64,000 bases of DNA from Proteromonas lacertae (taxonomy: Eukaryota), in the NCBI GenBank assembly GCA_002245135.1, contig NGBS01000872.1:124001-188000 (forward strand). Reading direction: 5' to 3'. The position numbers and the translations under genes are program-made. The notes under the pieces were generated by a model that was not told where the DNA came from, searched no databases, and saw only the letters and a list, made by a program, of their open reading frames with translations. This document shows positions 11,874-50,097 of this stretch, piece after piece. Every line of letters starts with the position of its first letter. Position 1 is the stretch's first letter.

Positions 11874-12061
11874 ATTTAATTTAATATTATAATTGTTTAT
11901 GATGAATATTGATTTTTTTTGTATTCTTTATAAGATTCTGTATAATACAATTTCTTTATTTGTTGATATGTAAATGATGAAATAAAAGAATAGAATAAAA
12001 ATGTAGGCTTGATTCTTATTTGACAATCCAAATTTTGATTTTCGATTTAATCAACACCAGA

Positions 12062-14132
12062 ATGAAAATTTCTAAAGATTTAGGTGATAATGGGTATTTA
12101 TGTATGTGATATATTTGATATAGACTATTATTGAATATGATCGAGTTTGGTTTGAGTGATTTTAGTTTGAGACTAGGAAATGGTGAAAATCTGAATGGAA
12201 TCAAATCAATTTTGTGCTATTCAAATGAAATATTTCGAAAAGTGTTAGAAGATCCTCAAGTAGAAGATCCTGTTCCTTTGTCAGAAAACATAAGTAAAGA
12301 GAGTATGTTGATGTTATTCCAATACTATGGAGGTGGTGTAGTAGAAATCCATGAAGAAAATGTTTGTAGTTTGCTGTTATTGAGTTTATATTACAATGAG
12401 AAAGAATTATTTAGTAGATTAAAAGACTATACAATAAATCACATGAATGAAGTAATTGTTAAAGATTTACTAAACAATGTAATGAATGTAGAAATGCTGA
12501 ATGAATTATACAGTTTATGTGATCTATATATTCGAGATAATCTATATATGATGATAGAAACTGAAATAATGAATGAAATCTGTTTAGATGGTTTAAAACA
12601 CATATTGAGTTTAGATAATGTATTGATTGTAAATGAGAATATGTTATTGAATAGTTTGTTGAGATATTATAAAGTGAGAAAGAATGAGATTGAAAAATGT
12701 GTAGAAAATAAGAATGAATTAATGAATTACTTGAATATGTGAATTGGAAAAAAGTGAATTATGAAATAGTTTCATTTGACGAATTGAAAGAATTTGAAAA
12801 TCTTCAAGAAATCACAATAAAGTTATCAAAATGTGATGTTAGTCATAAATACTGTTCAATTCCGAAATTATCCAATTCTAAATTCCAATCAATACTTCAA
12901 AAATACTATTTAAATCCAGAATTACTGAATAGATTTGAAGGTATATTTATTATTATTATGAGAATGAATAGAAGAAAATCTATATGAGTTATGTAGAAAT
13001 GGATGTAGATGAAGATATAAAGCTAATATTAGAATGTGATGATATAAAGTTGATAAAAATCCTGTTAATAATTCTAATCAGAATTAAAACATGAATATGA
13101 AATTCCTAAAAATCAAAAGTGGAAGTTGTTTTTTGATATATTGAAGAGTATAGAGAATGATAATGATAAAAATGAAGAAATAACTATCGAAAGTCTATCA
13201 AATTTCATTGAATGGTATATATAATATATATAATAATATATTATATAGTTGATTCGATAAAATCATTTGTGAAACTTGTGGATATGAGATTTTTTTAAAA
13301 CTGTTGAATATTGAATCATTATCTTTCGAAAAATGTGATTTAATAATCAATTATGTAAAAGAAAATGAAATGATAGAAAGTGAAGAAAAAGAAATTAGTG
13401 ATAAAAGAAATAATGAAAGAAAATGAATATGAATATGGAATTAATCAGAATATTCCAATAAAATGTGAATTTGATGGAGAAGAATGTGAATTTTCAGTTA
13501 AACCATCATTACCAAATGGTTTAATATTGAATGAGAAAACAGGTGAAATAAGTGGAAAAGTGAATGAAGAAATGAATAAAAGTGAATATGAAATAGAATG
13601 TAAACAAATGAATATAAAACAGATATTCAGAATATCATTGAAAATTATTGCGATATTTATTGAAGATTATAAAAGTGGTGGAATGTCAATAAGTGAAAAT
13701 GGCAGAAAATTAACTTGTAATGATGGTAATTATAACCATTGTTATTTGAATATGAAACTAGAAAAGAATATTTATCATTTAAGATATAAATCCATATTTA
13801 AACAATATCATCGTCCAGGATTTGGAGTTTCAACAATCAATAATTACAGTGGATATGATTATTATAAACATCAATCATGTTTAACAATATGGATTCAAAA
13901 TTCAACCCAATTATTTGGATCAAACCAAGTCACTAATCCTAATTATACAAATCACAATGGAGATGAATATGAGTATGTTGTGAATATGAAAGAAAGAACA
14001 ATATCAATAAAACAAAATAATGGAGAAGAATATCAAATATTCAGAAATATTCCTTCACCATTATATCCATTTGTTGTTATGGATTATGAGAATGAAAATA
14101 TCGAATTATTATCAGTGTCAATTGAAGATTAA
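12062..14132 (+). pseudogene. BTB/BACK - putative Ig (He_PIG-like) - SPRY-like gene, copy 1, frameshifted
   Basis: Near-identical to 37362-39490 but with apparent 1-nt indels near 12720, 13000, 13083 and 13211 and an in-frame 51-nt deletion. Some of these may be assembly errors. Confidence 0.65.
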
Positions 14133-33792: not shown

Positions 33793-34235
33793 ATGGCAGA
33801 ATTTCAAAACGGGAAGATTAAGTGGTACAGTATTTCAAAAGTATAAAATATCATTGTTTTATAAATCTATAGAGATACGGATTTATTACAAGAGATAATG
33901 GAGAAGGAGATGTATTTTTTCACAGAAGTACAGTTATATTACCTGATCCCCTAAGAATACCAAAGTTAGAACCAGAATATCCAGTACAATTTACAATTAA
34001 GACAACTGATAAAGGTGTTGAAGCTGAACAAGTCAAAGGAGTAAATTGTGATCTTCCCATGTGTGAAGTAACTGATATTCACAGAGTAGGTGGTGGTTAT
34101 AGAGGTCGTGGTGGTTTCAGAGGTAGAGGAGAAAGAGGCAGAGGCAGAGGTCGTGGTGGTTTTAGAGGTAGAGGTGGCAGAGGAAGAGGTGAAAAGAATG
34201 AAGGTGAAACTTCTGAACCTGCTCCAGCCAACTAA
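33793..34235 (+). CDS. Cold-shock domain protein with RGG tail (copy 1)
   Basis: GKIKWYSISK|RYGFITRDNGEGDVFFHRS plus RG-rich C-terminus. Confidence 0.9.
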
Positions 34236-34788: not shown

Positions 34789-35299
34789 ATGGCTGAACAA
34801 ACATTATTAGGTAAAATAAAATGGTACAATGTTCGTAGAGTATAAATAAGGTATTTTGATATTTTTATAGAGATATGGTTTTATTGTAAGAGATGATGGT
34901 CAAGGAGATGTTTTCTTCCATCGTACTGCTGTAAAACTAACTGATTCTATGAGAATTCCCAAATTAGAACCAGATTTTGCTGTACAATTTACTTGTGTAA
35001 AAGCAGATAAAGGTATGGAAGCAAAAGAAGTATTAGGTGTAGGAGGTCAAGATATTCCAGTGTTAGAAGTAAGTGAAATCCAAAGAGGAAGAGGTAGAGG
35101 TAGAGGTAGAGGTGGAAGAGGCAGAGGAAGAGGCCGTGGCAGAGGTTTCTATCGTGGTGGATTTGGATATTATGGTGGTTTTAGAGGTGGAAGAGGTAGA
35201 GGAGGTAGAGGTAGAGGTCGTGGTAGAGGTGGAAGAGGTAGAGGCCGAGGTGGAAGAGGTGGTAGCCAAGCCCCAGTAACAGAAACCCCTCAAAATTAA
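34789..35299 (+). CDS. Cold-shock domain protein with long RGG tail (copy 2)
   Basis: GKIKWYNVRR|RYGFIVRDDGQGDVFFHRT plus (RG)n; same intron position as copy 1. Confidence 0.9.
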
Positions 35300-37182: not shown

Positions 37183-37361
37183 AATGAAAATAATTATTTA
37201 ATTTGTATTATTTTATATATTCTATTCTCTTTATTCATTTTTTTTATTTGTTGGTGTTTATTTGTTGAATAATGATTAAAAGAAAAGAATAATAAAAGAG
37301 AAGTAGGCTTGATTCTTATTTGACAATCCAAATTTTGATTTTCAATTTAATCAACACCATA

Positions 37362-39490
37362 ATGAAAATATCTAAAGATTTAGGTGATAATGGGTATTTA
37401 TGTATGTGATATATTTGATATAGACTATTATTGAATATGATCGAGTTTGGTTTGAGTGATTTTAGTTTGAGACTAGGAAATGGTGAAAATCTGAATGGAA
37501 TCAAATCAATTTTGTGTTATTCAAATGAAATATTTCGAAAAGTGTTAGAAGATCCTCAAGTAGAAGATCCTGTTCCTTTGTCAGAAAACATAAGTAAAGA
37601 AAGTATGTTGATGTTATTCCAATACTATGGAGGTGGTGTAGTAGAAATCCATGAAGAAAATGTTTGTAGTTTGCTGTTATTGAGTTTATATTACAATGAG
37701 AAAGAATTATTTAATAGATTAAAAGATTATACAATAAATCACATGAATGAAATAATTGTTAAAGATTTACTAAACAATGTAATGAATGTAGAAATGTTGA
37801 ATGAATTATACAGTTTATGTGATCTATATATTCGAGATAATCTATATATGATGATAGAAACTGAAATAATGAATGAAATCTGTTTAGATGGTTTAAAACA
37901 CATATTGAGTTTAGATAATGTATTGATTGTAAATGAGAATATGTTATTGAATAGTTTGTTGAGATATTATAAAATGAGGAAGAATGAGATCGAAAAATGT
38001 GTAGAAAATAAGAATGAATTTAATGAATTACTTGAATATGTGAATTGGAAAAAAGTGAATTATGAAATAGTTTCATTTGACGAATTGAAAGAATTTGAAA
38101 ATCTTCAAGAAATCACAATAAAGTTATCAAAATGTAATGTTAGTCATAAATATTGTTCAATTCCGAAATTATCCAATTCTAAATTCCAATCAATACTTCA
38201 AAAATACTATTTAAATCCAGAATTACTGAATAGATTTGAAAGTATAATTTATTATTGTTATTATTATTATAAATAGAAGAAAATCTATATGAGATGTACA
38301 AAATAGTTACAGATGAAGATATAAAGCTAATATTAGAATGTGATGATATAAAGTTGATAAAAATCCTGTTAATAATTCTAATGAGATTAAAACATGAATA
38401 TGAAATTCCTAAAAATCAAAAATGGAAATCGCTTATTGATATAGCAAGAAGTATAGAGAATGATAATCATAAAAATGAAGAAATGAATATGGAAAGTCTA
38501 TCATATTTCATTGATGGTATAATATTATATAATATTTTTTATTGAAATAGGTAAATGTGTTGATATAATTTGTGAAACATGTGGATATGAGATTCTTTTA
38601 AAACTGTTGAATGTTGAATCATTATCTAGTGACAAATGTGATTTAATAATCAATTATGTAAAAGAAAATGAAATGATAGAAAGTGAAGAAATAATAAATT
38701 AGTGATAAAAGAAATAATGAAAGAAGTAAAGACTAGATTATTAATGCATCCATTAACAATATTTAAATATGAAAGAAATGAATATGAATATGGAATTAAT
38801 CAGAATATTCCAATAAAATGTGAATTTGATGGAGAAGAGTGTGAATTTTCAGTTAAACCATCATTACCAAATGGTTTAATATTGAATGAGAAAACAGGTG
38901 AAATAAGTGGAAAAGTGAATGAAGAAATGAATAAAAGTGAATATGAAATAGAATGTAAACAAATGAATATAAAAAAGACATTCAAAATATCACTAGAAAT
39001 AATAAAAGTGATATTCATTAAAAATTATAAAAGTGGTGGAATGTCAATAAGTGAAAATGGCAGAAAATTAACATGTAATGATGGTAATTATAACCATTGT
39101 TATTTGAATATGAAACTAGAAAAGAATATTTATCATTTAAGATATAAATCTACATTTATTAACAACCATCGTCCAGGATTTGGAGTTTCAGCAATCAATA
39201 ATTACAGTGGATATGAATATTATAAACATCAATCATGTTTAACAATATGGATTCAAAATTCAACCCAATTATTTGGATCAAACCAAGTTACTAATCCTAA
39301 TTATGCAAACCACAATGGAGATGAATATGAGTATGTTGTGAATATGAAAGAAAGAACAATATCAATAAAACAAAATAATGGAGAAGAATATCAAATATTC
39401 AGAAATATTCCTTCACCATTATATCCGTTTGTTGCTATGGATTATGATAATGAACATATCGAATTATTATCAGTGTTAATTGAAGATTAA
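37362..39490 (+). CDS. BTB/BACK - putative Ig (He_PIG-like) - SPRY-like protein, copy 2
   Basis: BTB (SDFSLRL...KSILCYSNEIFRKVL), BACK-like helices, FSVKPSLPNGLILNEKTGEISG (He_PIG-like), SPRY-like end (PLYPFVAM). One frame break at about 38700. Confidence 0.7.
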
Positions 39491-39536: not shown

Positions 39537-39653
39537 AATCAGAGTGTGTGACATGCGTAACAAGATTTGTGATCGTCACTTGATTTCATATTGAATTCTA
39601 CACCACGTAGATCAACTTTTTCACTCATCATGTGGTTAAGAACCAGAAGGATC
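39537..39653 (-). ncRNA. SNORD13: SNORD13/U13 (snR45-like) box C/D snoRNA, putative 18S helix 45 ac4C guide
   Basis: 5' GAUCCUUCUGGUUC, box C AUGAUGA (39631-39625), CUUGUUACG (39564-39556), terminal box D CUGA (39542-39539). Antisense elements match the conserved 18S 3' sequences GAAGGAUC, GAACC and CGUAACAAG. Confidence 0.8.
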
Positions 39654-43680: not shown

Positions 43681-44789
43681 ATGAATTTAGATATTTTAAA
43701 TGCATCAGTATCATTTATTATGTTATTTAAATAGAATGCACCAGATAATGAAGTTCCAGAGAGAGAATGTAAGATAGTTTGTTTGAATTGTTGTTAGTTT
43801 GGAAAAAATACAATCCATTTAGATATATAAGGTTTTATCGTTTAAGTGCACCAATAATTCCATATAATTTCGAAGAAGATAATAGCATTATCGTTTTAGA
43901 TGATGTGTGTAAGACCTATGTTTCTGAAAAAGGTACAGATTTAAAAATAATCGTTAATGATAAATATTTTAGGTGGTAAAATAGCATTACAAAATGTTTC
44001 TTTTAAAATCAAGAAAGGTGAATTTGTGATTATAATGGGTCATTCAGGTTCTGGTAAATCTACGCTATTAAATATAATTGGTACAATTGATCCGCCAACT
44101 CAAGGTAATGTAATAATTGATTCAATTCCAATAAATCACAAAGTATAAAAACATGTATTTATGTCTTATTAGACTAAAGAATATGTAATGGCAAATATTC
44201 GTAGAGATACAATCGGATTTGTATTTCAAAGTTTTAATTTAATCCCCAAACTAAGTGCAATTGAAAATGTAGAACTTCCAATGTTATTACAAAATAAATT
44301 AAGTCACAGTGATAGAAAAGAAAGAGCAAAACAGTTATTAGATGAAATGAAATTATCTCATCGATATGAACATACACTAGTAGAAATGAGTGGAGGTGAA
44401 CAACAAAGAGTTACAATCGCAAGATCACTAGCTAATAAGTTTATATATTATTATTATTATGAAATAGTCCAAAGATATTATTGTTAGATGAACCAACAGG
44501 TGATTTAGATGAATATTCCACCTATTTAGTAATGCAGAAGTTGATGGAATTGAATAATAATGGACTAACAATAGTAATGGTAACTCATAATGAAACTCTA
44601 CAGAATTTAGCAAATAGATTGATATTTATGAAAGGTGGTAAAATAGATCATGAAAGAATAGTCACTAAAGAAGAAAGAGAAATATATATAAAACATATTG
44701 ATGGATATATGCAACAACATGATGGTTTCTTCCCTGATAATCCAGACGATTTTCAAATACCAACTTCAAGCGAAAATGTTTGTGAATGA
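43681..44789 (+). CDS. Stand-alone ABC ATPase of the LolD/MacB type
   Basis: [55 protein letters not shown]; no TM domain. Confidence 0.88.
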
Positions 44790-44946
44790 TTATTGTGTTT
44801 TTAGATTTTTTTTTCTAATTAACATTCTCCTAATATTAAAATAGTAAATAATTTGTTATAATAATTGTTTGTTTATAAATAACCCTAAAAACAAACATCA
44901 ATATAGATAAATCAATAGTATAACATATAATTCCGATAAATCAAAA

Positions 44947-45013
44947 GAACACACCATCAAATATACATCACCTTCTCAGGTTTACATGTATATCATCATC
45001 AAATGTGTGCTTC
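44947..45013 (-). promoter_or_regulatory. Eukaryotic SECIS element, type II
   Basis: GAAGCACAC-auuug-AUGAU-GAUAUACAU-GU-AAA-CCU-GAGA-AGG-UG-AUGUAUAUU-UGAU-g-GUGUGUUC: lower stem, AUGA/GA core, 9-bp upper stem, AAA 11 nt from the core, apical mini-stem. Confidence 0.9.
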
Positions 45014-45090
45014 CAACCTCTCTCATTACCAGCTATATATGTCATACTAATCGAATATATATATAAGTATTTAATAATAATTATAATAAT

Positions 45091-45784
45091 TTATGATCTT
45101 AACTTCTTCCAAGTCTCTTTAATTGATTTTAACTTAGTAATAATGTTAGCATTCCAGAACACACTGATTCCCAACAATATAAAACCAGCATAAGTAAATA
45201 CAACAGTAAATATCCATCCAACTACACTCAAACAACCATACACTTCTTCATGACATCCAAATCTATATTGGTTAGATCCTTTCATTTCTGGCCACCATTG
45301 GAGATCTTGCATTACATGTCTTACTTGGTCAGATAATACAAGCGGGAATGCGATTAACATACATACTAAAGGTCCCCATACTTGGAATTTACTTCCCTTT
45401 CTTCGTGCCTTTCCTCTCCATACTAAATACAACACCACAAGTAACATTAGTAAAGTGATTGCAAAACTAATGTAATGACCCACTGAACGAGCAAGGTTGG
45501 AAGTGCTTGCTCCTACAATGGAAAATAAAATAGCAGGCCAACATCATCCGCCGATTAAAGCGGGAATACTGAAAACTAATGTAGCTATTGAAACAATTCT
45601 AAGGAGTTATAACTGATTAAAAATACAATGATCTTCTTTCCTCATTTGGGCCTCTCTCTTCGATTACCGGCTTCTTTCCTCATGCTCCTCCTTCACATCC
45701 TGTTGAAGTAGAGGGAGCCACTGAATAGACTTCCTCTTCAACAGGTTCCGGCTCATCGAGCTGGATCATAAACTTATTACTCAT
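45091..45784 (-). CDS. Multi-pass membrane selenoprotein with two in-frame UGA codons (MSP-like), 221 aa
   Basis: ATG 45784, one 28-nt intron (45599-45626), TGA at codon 35 (45680-45682, GCEGGAUG) and codon 71 (45544-45546, LIGGUCWP), continuous frame to TAA 45091, SECIS about 80 nt downstream. Confidence 0.85.
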
Positions 45785-45945: not shown

Positions 45946-46813
45946 TTAATGTAGATTCAAATTAGAAAAAAATTCACTTCTAGTTCTTACATCTCTTTTA
46001 AAACATCCTAAAACTGAACTTGTGGTGGTGGTGCTTCCTATATTTATAATTAATCAAGAAAAATAATACCAGGCTTTTCAACTCCTCTCATTGTCATACA
46101 CATGTGACTATATATTTAAATAAATGAATAACAGATATAGCAATACGTAGCTTCAATAACAACACCAACCCCCAAAGGATGAATGGTATTAAATATGCAC
46201 TGAGCAATCTGTCTTGTTAATCTCTCTTGAATTTGTAATCTTCTTGAGTATGTCTCAGATATTCTAGCTAATTTACTAATTCCCAACACTTTTTTATTTG
46301 GAATATATCCTATATGAACTTTCCCAAAGAAAGGAAGGATATGATGTTCACAAAAGCTATATAATGGAACATCTCTAACAATAACCATCTCATCATGATT
46401 TTCATCGAAGATAGCCTCATTTACAACAGTCTATTTAATTATATATTTGTGTTTTTATTTACGCTGATTGATTCTTTGTAACCTTTTGTGCAAAAAAGTA
46501 ATGCTTTTGCCATTCTTTGTGGAGTTTTTATCAATCCATTTCGTTCAGGATTTTCTCCCATCAACTATAAAAGGAAAGAGTATTTTAACTAAAAATACTT
46601 CTATTATCTTTTTAATATGTTTGGACATTTTCTTGACTCGCTTTTCTTCCGATAAATTTGAATATTTGGACTTTAACAATTAAAACAAGAAATATACTAC
46701 AAATTGTTCACTTTCTGATGAATGTTCATCTGTATCTTTTGGTTGGCTATTATTATGTATTTCTAATGTTATTAATACGTTTTATTCTCTGTAGCCTCTG
46801 ATTTCTTTGACAT
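45946..46813 (-). CDS. GCH1: GTP cyclohydrolase I
   Basis: [54 protein letters not shown]. Confidence 0.95.
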
Positions 46814-48692: not shown

Positions 48693-50097
48693 ATGGCAGA
48701 ACCAGCAGCAGCAGCTGATCCTATTCCAACTGGAAGCATAAAAAGAATTGATTTAGATATTGTATTTCATATTCAATTGTAATGTAATAGCCACAACCAG
48801 ATAATATGATGGATATTATCATTGAAAAACTCAAAGTATGCTTTTAACTGTTAGTTTTTATAGATTCTTGATTATGAAACAGAATTTTGTGAACCAAACA
48901 ATGTTCCACCATTCAGTCACATATTTTTCTCAATTCCTTTCTCAAATACTTCTGTACAATCACAATACTTTAATCTTACTGTAACTTGGTTAATGCATCT
49001 TTGTAAGCAAGATTTTTCAATTGGCGAATATGATGATCCAGATACAATGTATTTATACTATATAAGTATAATATTCTATGTATAGTGTTTCAAAATTAAT
49101 GCATACTTTAAAACAAATGGATTTCCCAGGCTCCTTCCCAGCTCAAAAGTTAAAGACACCCTATGGCTATCCAATATGTGCAGTATTGGATTTCCTCTGT
49201 GATACAGCATTAACATTAAAGAATTTCAAATTACCCTCCAAATTAGTCATTCAAGATGAAGAAGAAGCTAAAATGGAGACTTTACTCGATGATACTGATG
49301 AGAATGTAGAAATAGCTGATGATTTAGAATATGATGATGCACCATTGTATATACGATAATTATTATTTCTAAATAGTGATGAAAATGAGAGTAAAATGGA
49401 TGATGTAATGAATACAAGTTATATGGAAGAAGTAAAGAGTGATGTAGATCCATTAAAATGGCGACAAGAGTTAGACAGAGTAGCACCTAAACTAAAACCA
49501 GTCCAAACAGCCAGTACTAAAGAATGGAGAACTCATTTAGAACAAATGCAACAACATACTGAAAATATTAAAGGATTATCAAGTTATACTGACACAGTGA
49601 TGAATAAACTATCAGTGGATTTAGAGAGACAATTGGATCAAATATCTCAAAGAGAAAGGACTTTAACTATTCAATTTAGTAATATAGTGAGTCAATATAA
49701 TGATATTCATAAAGAAACAGAAGATAAAATGTCTGAAATATCTCAACTACAAGAAATTATTGGAACTATCAGGAATGATTATGACATTGTAAAAGATAAA
49801 ATAAAGGAACTTAAAGAGATGATGGGAACTAGTAAAACCTCTACTGGTGATACTGGTCCAATTATGAGAATGAAACAAGCAATATCCGCATTGAAGAAAG
49901 AGATTAATGGCTTAAGTGCTCAAATAGGTGTAGTTAGTCATGCTATTACACAGACATACACTGAAGCTCTTGATGCTTATGAAGATGATTATACTTTGAG
50001 TATTGAGGAGGAAGAGACTTTAGATTTTAGTAGGAATGGTAATAATGATTCTGACAGTGATGATGATGATAGTTATATGTATGGTGGAGGCAAGTAA
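48693..50097 (+). CDS. IFT57: Intraflagellar transport protein 57
   Basis: EKLKILDYE, EYDDPDT, KLKTPYGYPICAVLD, WRQELDRVAPKLK, KEWRTHLEQM, DTGPIMRMKQAISALKKEI...IGVV. Confidence 0.9.

Follow-up and report, generated by a model that had tools for sequence, protein, structure and literature searches.

A minus-strand gene of Proteromonas lacertae, lying within a 64,000-nucleotide stretch of genomic DNA (hereafter the window), almost certainly encodes a membrane selenoprotein (MSP) with two selenocysteine (Sec) residues, a reading that we put at about 0.95. Both in-frame UGA codons are very likely decoded as Sec through a SECIS element in the 3' untranslated region (UTR). The gene is a new member of a known family, a two-Sec MSP having been on record from Dictyostelium since 2007 (PMC2375036, including the alignment in its supplementary file 2).

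Gene structure

The original prediction placed a single 28-nt intron and TGA codons 35 and 71 in one frame; its coordinates proved exact, and both an intron scan and related contigs (X2 and X3) agree with it. On the minus strand, one frame of 221 codons runs from ATG 45784 to TAA 45091 once the 28-nt GT-AG intron is spliced out. The features of the locus are as follows.

45627..45784, minus strand: coding exon 1, which holds codons 1-52 and two further nucleotides; it encodes the N-terminal arm (C30-x4-U35), predicted to be disordered; covered by related contig X2
45680..45682, minus strand: first Sec, TGA codon 35; motif CEGGAU, matching CEGGVU of Dictyostelium in the published alignment
45599..45626, minus strand: GT-AG intron of 28 nt; from the intron scan, with exactly these 28 nt missing from related contigs X2 and X3
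45091..45598, minus strand: exon 2 (coding), with four predicted membrane helices, U71-C72, conserved H94, D143, R146, H147 and D151, loop C168 and C175, a basic C-terminal helix and the TAA stop
45544..45546, minus strand: second Sec, TGA codon 71; motif GUCWP, the family hallmark, also in the published alignment; TGA in 68 of 69 readable related loci and TGC in one
44950..45009, minus strand: type II SECIS in the 3' UTR, with AUGA core at 44999, AAA and mini-stem; from Rfam SECIS_1, folding and a strict pattern

The scan was run by script over all possible GT/GC..AG introns of 18-89 nt within the stretch from ATG 45784 to TAA 45091. Five candidates keep the frame free of TAA and TAG, two of them GT-AG introns (28 and 58 nt) with a common donor; the four alternatives were set aside because the related contigs lack exactly 28 nt at 45598. 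These contigs stem from two runs of one study, are related to the window rather than identical with it, and are RNA by guess only; the three sequencing runs share only 5-7% of words. X2 covers both TGA codons and has no listed difference at either, though nearby positions differ (13 of its 18 differences from the window are listed, those near the stretch ends being missing from the list), and no difference is listed at TGA codon 35 in X2 or X3.

The window is AT-rich (GC 0.23-0.32), with very short introns, whose size could point to a Blastocystis-like lineage (PMC3129679, PMC4159000, PMC5608401). Its list of open reading frames recovers only the last 130 amino acids of the protein (45091-45483), as had been noted at the outset. 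The gene is real, belongs to a eukaryote with small introns and is easily mis-annotated.

Decoding of the TGA codons

Related loci were drawn from metagenomes: 80 in all, 69 with the second motif readable in one frame and 11 without. At the second Sec site the codon is TGA in 68 of the 69 readable loci and TGC in the remaining one, and tryptophan in the related cores is encoded by TGG 347 times and by TGA seven times, all seven in a single locus that is not readable in one frame. An N-terminal Sec is present in 43 of the 69 loci, as a short C-x(2-5)-U motif in 28 and as an Rdx-type CxxUG motif in 15; in the other 26 none is seen. The comparison proposed with the original prediction, namely a search for Cys or TGA at positions 35 and 71 in homologs, thus returned TGA at both in related DNA and Cys at both in one homolog (P0111). 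Site 2, the C-x(2-5)-U or CxxU motifs and the Cys homolog all support decoding as Sec.

It is very improbable that the TGA codons are not Sec, whether because the locus is a pseudogene, because TGA is read as Trp or Cys, or because translation starts after them: the SECIS scores under the Rfam gathering cut-off and is covered by none of the contigs, and 40 of 43 aligned database proteins have Trp at site 2, but against this stand the near-invariant TGA at that site beside core tryptophans encoded by TGG (347 against seven), the nine long exons of the window, with 23 TGG, 59 TGT/TGC and no TGA (a count that is partly circular because the exons were chosen as open frames), and the position of the start, the only upstream in-frame ATGs being codons 1 and 6 and helix 1 preceding U71. 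Since the DNA of the loci has TGA at site 2 and TGG for core Trp, the Trp in the database proteins most likely reflects gene callers reading TGA as Trp. In addition, 118 of 143 representatives of the family start past the Sec site, and others have Trp there; MSP database proteins are mostly mis-predicted. No tRNA gene was found in the 64-kb window.

Several MSP forms carry Cys for Sec, with CCWP or CCFP motifs (P0083, P0113, P0126, P0074, P0086, P0111, P0057 and L043), and three such forms have long low-complexity C-terminal tails.

SECIS element

The complete type II SECIS that had been placed about 80 nt past the stop begins 81 nt after it, with its AUGA core 91 nt past the stop; the fold and the pattern agree with the assignment, and the Rfam score lies under the cut-off. 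Specifically, Rfam SECIS_1 matches at 45009-44950 with 32.1 bits, 2.9 short of its gathering score of 35, and with E = 6e-4 in a 2-kb search; when the whole window was compared with all 4227 Rfam families, it was the best of two matches, at E = 0.019. The element folds into a 9-bp helix, AAA and an apical mini-stem (z = -2.6; three of 200 shuffles fold equally well), and a strict SECIS pattern finds one site on both strands of the 64 kb, namely this one. The core quartet, helix II and apical AA are all present in the sense-strand 3' UTR. The element lies outside the reach of every related contig compared. It differs from that of Dictyostelium in lacking the UGUA before the core, where the window reads UUUG.

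Among related 3' UTRs, the strict pattern identifies SECIS-like elements in 16 of 57, compared with two in antisense and none in shuffled sequence; Rfam recovers a SECIS in one of the 20 loci submitted (of the 80). Alignment of 14 related elements gave no consensus structure and therefore no covariation evidence.

An exact TGTTTGTT stands behind each of two convergent genes, at 44866-44873 (plus strand) after an ABC ATPase gene and at 44890-44897 (minus strand) after the MSP gene. This sequence marks the poly(A) site in Blastocystis. If it acts here as in Blastocystis, the poly(A) site of the MSP transcript would fall downstream of the SECIS. Over the whole window its enrichment is weak (11 copies against 6.2 +/- 2.2 expected, a number reached in four of 100 shuffles), and behind 11 genes of the window, one of them entered on the wrong strand, it has no strand bias.

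Membership of the MSP family

A resemblance to MSP had been suggested at the outset, with a new selenoprotein family as the alternative. The published MSP alignment (PMC2375036, supplementary file 2) bears out the former and contradicts the latter, as both Sec motifs and the downstream motifs agree with it. The Dictyostelium protein reads CEGGVU near its N-terminus and SIPALVGSUCWP further on; the corresponding segments of the window protein are CEGGAU and SIPALIGGUCWP, and by eye its DxxRH, YRxGC, CLS and FTYxG motifs downstream agree as well. A new selenoprotein family is ruled out by these matching motifs. The two proteins also share a length of ~220-230 amino acids and a type II SECIS. The published account describes the Dictyostelium MSP with two Sec and reports 75Se labelling of a band of matching size (Lobanov et al. 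2007, PMC2375036); the green-algal MSPs in its alignment have the second Sec only and no N-terminal arm. Elsewhere, algal MSPs are described as almost exclusively of the Sec form (PMC7539508), and MSP is listed among predicted selenoproteins (PMC7435645).

The window protein has GxUCWP after its first hydrophobic helix, homology to MSPs over the whole core and, optionally for the family, a second Sec near the N-terminus; its multi-pass membrane character is predicted, from AlphaFold helices and hydropathy. BLASTP aligns it at 38% identity (E 2e-30) with a database protein (P0092) that by eye closely matches the Dictyostelium MSP of the published alignment. Three homolog searches returned two, eight and 70 proteins, and an MSP profile search (E <= 0.001) yielded no fewer than 625 representatives at 50% identity; 150 of these are listed. 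In a tree of 81 rows, from which four loci split by introns and those whose core is not in one frame were omitted, the window protein falls in a long-branch clade (100/100) solely with three database fragments, a lineage separate from that of Dictyostelium MSP.

Searches of Pfam, NCBIfam and PDB sequences gave no significant family for the core, no curated MSP profile was found in Pfam or NCBIfam, and exon 1 had no Pfam match. The Pfam family DUF1218 matches 34 of 56 family members weakly (best E 0.0036), and Atlas held no usable match for the Cys homolog P0057.

Predicted topology

An AlphaFold model of exon 2 (pLDDT 82.8) has helices at residues 2-16, 20-30, 34-65, 70-98, 125-146 and 152-167. 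In a model of a full-length homolog (L010, with both Sec as Cys), the N-terminus is coil (pLDDT 42-57) and is followed by a long helix that stops immediately ahead of the Sec-Cys pair. The protein is predicted to cross the membrane with four helices and to have both its ends in the cytosol. Charge bias places both the loop between helices 2 and 3 (K+R 5.0, D+E 0.2) and the C-terminus (K+R 5.5, D+E 1.5) inside; the 15 residues before helix 1 have no positive bias (K+R 3.0, D+E 4.0), so that the cytosolic placement of the N-terminus follows from helix parity.

The U71-C72 pair is predicted to lie where helix 1 ends on the exoplasmic side, together with the invariant H94, D143, R146 and H147 and with C168 of the loop; D151 would gather there as well. 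Position 175 is His instead of Cys in 23 of 62 rows. One homolog (P0121) contains a lectin domain inside the loop between helices 3 and 4, an insertion that fits the exoplasmic placement of this loop. The arm is acidic and appears flexible, with its C30-x4-U35 motif and its coil conformation in the homolog model, and the distance between the two Sec residues, 36 residues here, ranges from 43 to 113 in relatives.

Foldseek found no match at E <= 0.001 for either model. The best VIA-align hit (Orai; Z 7.9, rmsd 3.5, 98 residues aligned) is within the background expected of helical bundles, and DsbD/CcdA, DsbB and VKOR do not appear among the best 50 VIA-align rows, a result that excludes none of them.

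Domain fusions in relatives

The MSP core is repeatedly joined to thiol-reducing domains. By motif, 15 of the 69 readable loci have an N-terminal Rdx/SelW-type CxxU domain, and Pfam confirmed Rdx in all three such loci tested and in two database proteins (P0044 and P0045); these loci fall in two separate groups of the 81-row tree. C-terminal redox fusions among 143 representatives comprise three with thioredoxin (centres CKPC, CKPC and CVPC), two with glutaredoxin (CPFC in both) and one with thioredoxin reductase. With a threshold of 1e-3 applied to 24 proteins and 1e-5 to the other 119, no Pfam domain was found in 135 of the 143, and the only other domains were one lectin and one weak propeller match, both inside the core. 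The redox modules are all at the ends that are predicted to be cytosolic.

Three loci without an N-terminal Sec (L048, L050 and L065) instead carry a C-terminal, thioredoxin-like CxxC tail after helix 4. They form a clade (100/100) that is sister (96/85) to an Rdx-fused group, and the reducing module therefore looks interchangeable.

The Rdx-type loci (L029, L031, L033-L035, L037, L045, L060, L063, L064, L066 and L075-L078) are two-Sec fusions of two selenoprotein families, and L058 and L059 look like 5'-cut members of the same type. P0153, P0120, P0162, P0109 and P0089 are the database proteins in which thioredoxin or glutaredoxin follows the MSP core. P0184, a single and possibly chimeric sequence, combines an MSP core with a complete high-molecular-weight thioredoxin reductase; its predicted end is GGC, a place at which one would expect another Sec. 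The lectin domain of P0121 is a beta-trefoil at residues 115-215, between helices 3 and 4, and the weak beta-propeller (SGL) match is at residues 233-363 of P0105.

Possible functions

In characterised selenoenzymes Sec is nearly always a redox residue. The window protein may be a membrane electron relay of the thiol/selenol type, a mechanism that, taken as a whole, we give an even chance. Cytosolic thioredoxin or glutaredoxin, supplied by NADPH and thioredoxin reductase, would reduce the flexible C30-x4-U35 arm, which would serve as the cytosolic thiol module of this protein; the reduced arm would in turn reduce the U71-C72 pair near the outer face of the membrane, and the pair would hand its electrons on to an acceptor, for instance a disulfide, at the lumenal or outer side. 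Such a protein would work in the manner of DsbD/CcdA, without belonging to that family.

The fusions at the predicted cytosolic ends (Rdx/SelW in 15 of 69 loci, and thioredoxin, glutaredoxin and thioredoxin reductase in database proteins) suggest that the Sec-Cys pair in the membrane is reduced by a thiol module on the cytosolic side. The variable spacing between the two Sec residues, the coil conformation of the arm, and the charge bias that puts the C-terminus and the loop between helices 2 and 3 inside also favour a relay. Against it, an N-terminal Sec is not seen in 26 of the 69 loci (some of them truncated or split by introns, three with the thioredoxin tail, and ~16 without any module), and the green-algal proteins of the published alignment have no arm. 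Redox fusions make up six of 143 representatives, that with thioredoxin reductase being one, possibly chimeric, sequence; C175 is replaced by His in 23 of 62 rows; and the N-terminal flank has no positive bias. The prediction also puts the arm and U71-C72 on opposite sides of the membrane, so the protein would have to change conformation.

Cytoplasmic thioredoxin is the source of the electrons that DsbD carries across the membrane, as summarised in PMC3322552. The likeness to DsbD/CcdA/ScsB is one of proposal only, the shared elements being a cytosolic thioredoxin-type donor, a membrane redox pair, an acceptor on the far side and fusions to thioredoxin-fold domains. MSP differs in its four predicted helices and its vicinal Sec-Cys pair, DsbD having two distant Cys instead. 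Homology searches gave weak DsbD matches in only two of 56 family members (best E 0.061). With Rdx proteins (SelW/SelT/SelH; PF10262) the shared feature is the CxxU centre: in relatives a complete Rdx domain takes the place of the C-x4-U arm of the window protein, which has no such domain.

More tentatively, MSP as a family could be a widespread, selenium-based eukaryotic conductor of reductant across membranes, a counterpart of DsbD/CcdA with its own fold. An exchangeable cytosolic module (C-x-U arm, SelW-like domain, thioredoxin, glutaredoxin or thioredoxin reductase) would then couple the NADPH-thioredoxin/glutaredoxin system to the lumen or cell surface, and the window gene would be the minimal, 'swinging arm' version.

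A possible, if somewhat doubtful, alternative is that MSP is a terminal membrane reductase, roughly VKOR-like, in which U71-C72 receives electrons from cytosolic thioredoxin or glutaredoxin and reduces a small substrate in the bilayer (a lipid hydroperoxide, a quinone or a comparable molecule), held in a pocket that H94, D143, R146 and H147 would line. The redox-domain fusions fit this equally well, the invariant polar and charged residues within predicted membrane helices resemble a substrate pocket, and C175, a possible acceptor in a relay, is not invariant. We found no positive link to VKOR or peroxidases, however, and the variable exoplasmic loop, with its extra Cys pairs and its lectin insert, fits exoplasmic proteins or glycans better than lipid. 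The ~16 loci and the green-algal proteins of the published alignment without a module, and the predicted position of the two centres on opposite faces, count against a relay and a terminal reductase alike.

Improbable is a role in binding or transport of soft metals (Hg, Cu, Cd) like that of bacterial MerC and MerT, with U71-C72 as the membrane site and the C-x-U arm as cytosolic acceptor. These bacterial proteins are likewise small and membrane-bound, and their first helix also holds a Cys pair, with a similar CxPAL motif after it (UCWPAL here, CFPAL in MerC); Pfam MerC matches 13 of 56 family members weakly (best E 0.01), the window protein has one weak MerT match (E 0.011), and Cys and His exchange at position 175. 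Profile comparisons, however, were not significant: hhalign gave 0.9% against an 11-sequence MerC profile, with the Cys motifs unaligned, a comparison of limited reach because that profile is shallow (73-100% identity), and 1.4% and 0.3% probability against single MerC and MerT sequences, respectively. A plasmid search yielded no merC match, and the domains fused to MSP are thiol reductases, not metal chaperones.

How reducing power passes from the cytosol to the secretory pathway of eukaryotes is a long-standing question. The literature that we found, including the treatment of fusions in PMC7539508, assigns no function to MSP and mentions no MSP fusions, its coverage stopping short of subscription journals, in which fusions may be in print. 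Because the core is repeatedly fused to thiol-reducing domains, a concrete function can now be tested, and the MSP of Dictyostelium or Chlamydomonas would permit a direct test of reductant transfer. The value of the window gene lies in the view of the family that it opens, with at least 625 representatives, mostly mis-predicted.

Genomic neighbourhood

A GTP cyclohydrolase I gene (~45946-46560, minus strand) ends ~160 nt upstream of the MSP gene on the same strand, and the ABC ATPase gene (44188-44789, plus strand) converges on it, ending ~160 nt beyond the SECIS. An IFT57 gene at 49360-50097 (plus strand; Pfam E 2.8e-37) suggests a flagellated stage. A gene of ~2 kb is duplicated at 11994-13942 and 37294-39300, 25.3 kb apart and with 85-98% identity between the copies; by eye it presumably has a BTB-like front and an SPRY-like end. 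Rfam also reports a snoU13 match at 39537-39652 (minus strand; E 0.61), probably by chance. Two tandem genes, at 33873-34235 and 34871-35299 (plus strand), resemble by eye cold-shock domains with RG-rich tails.
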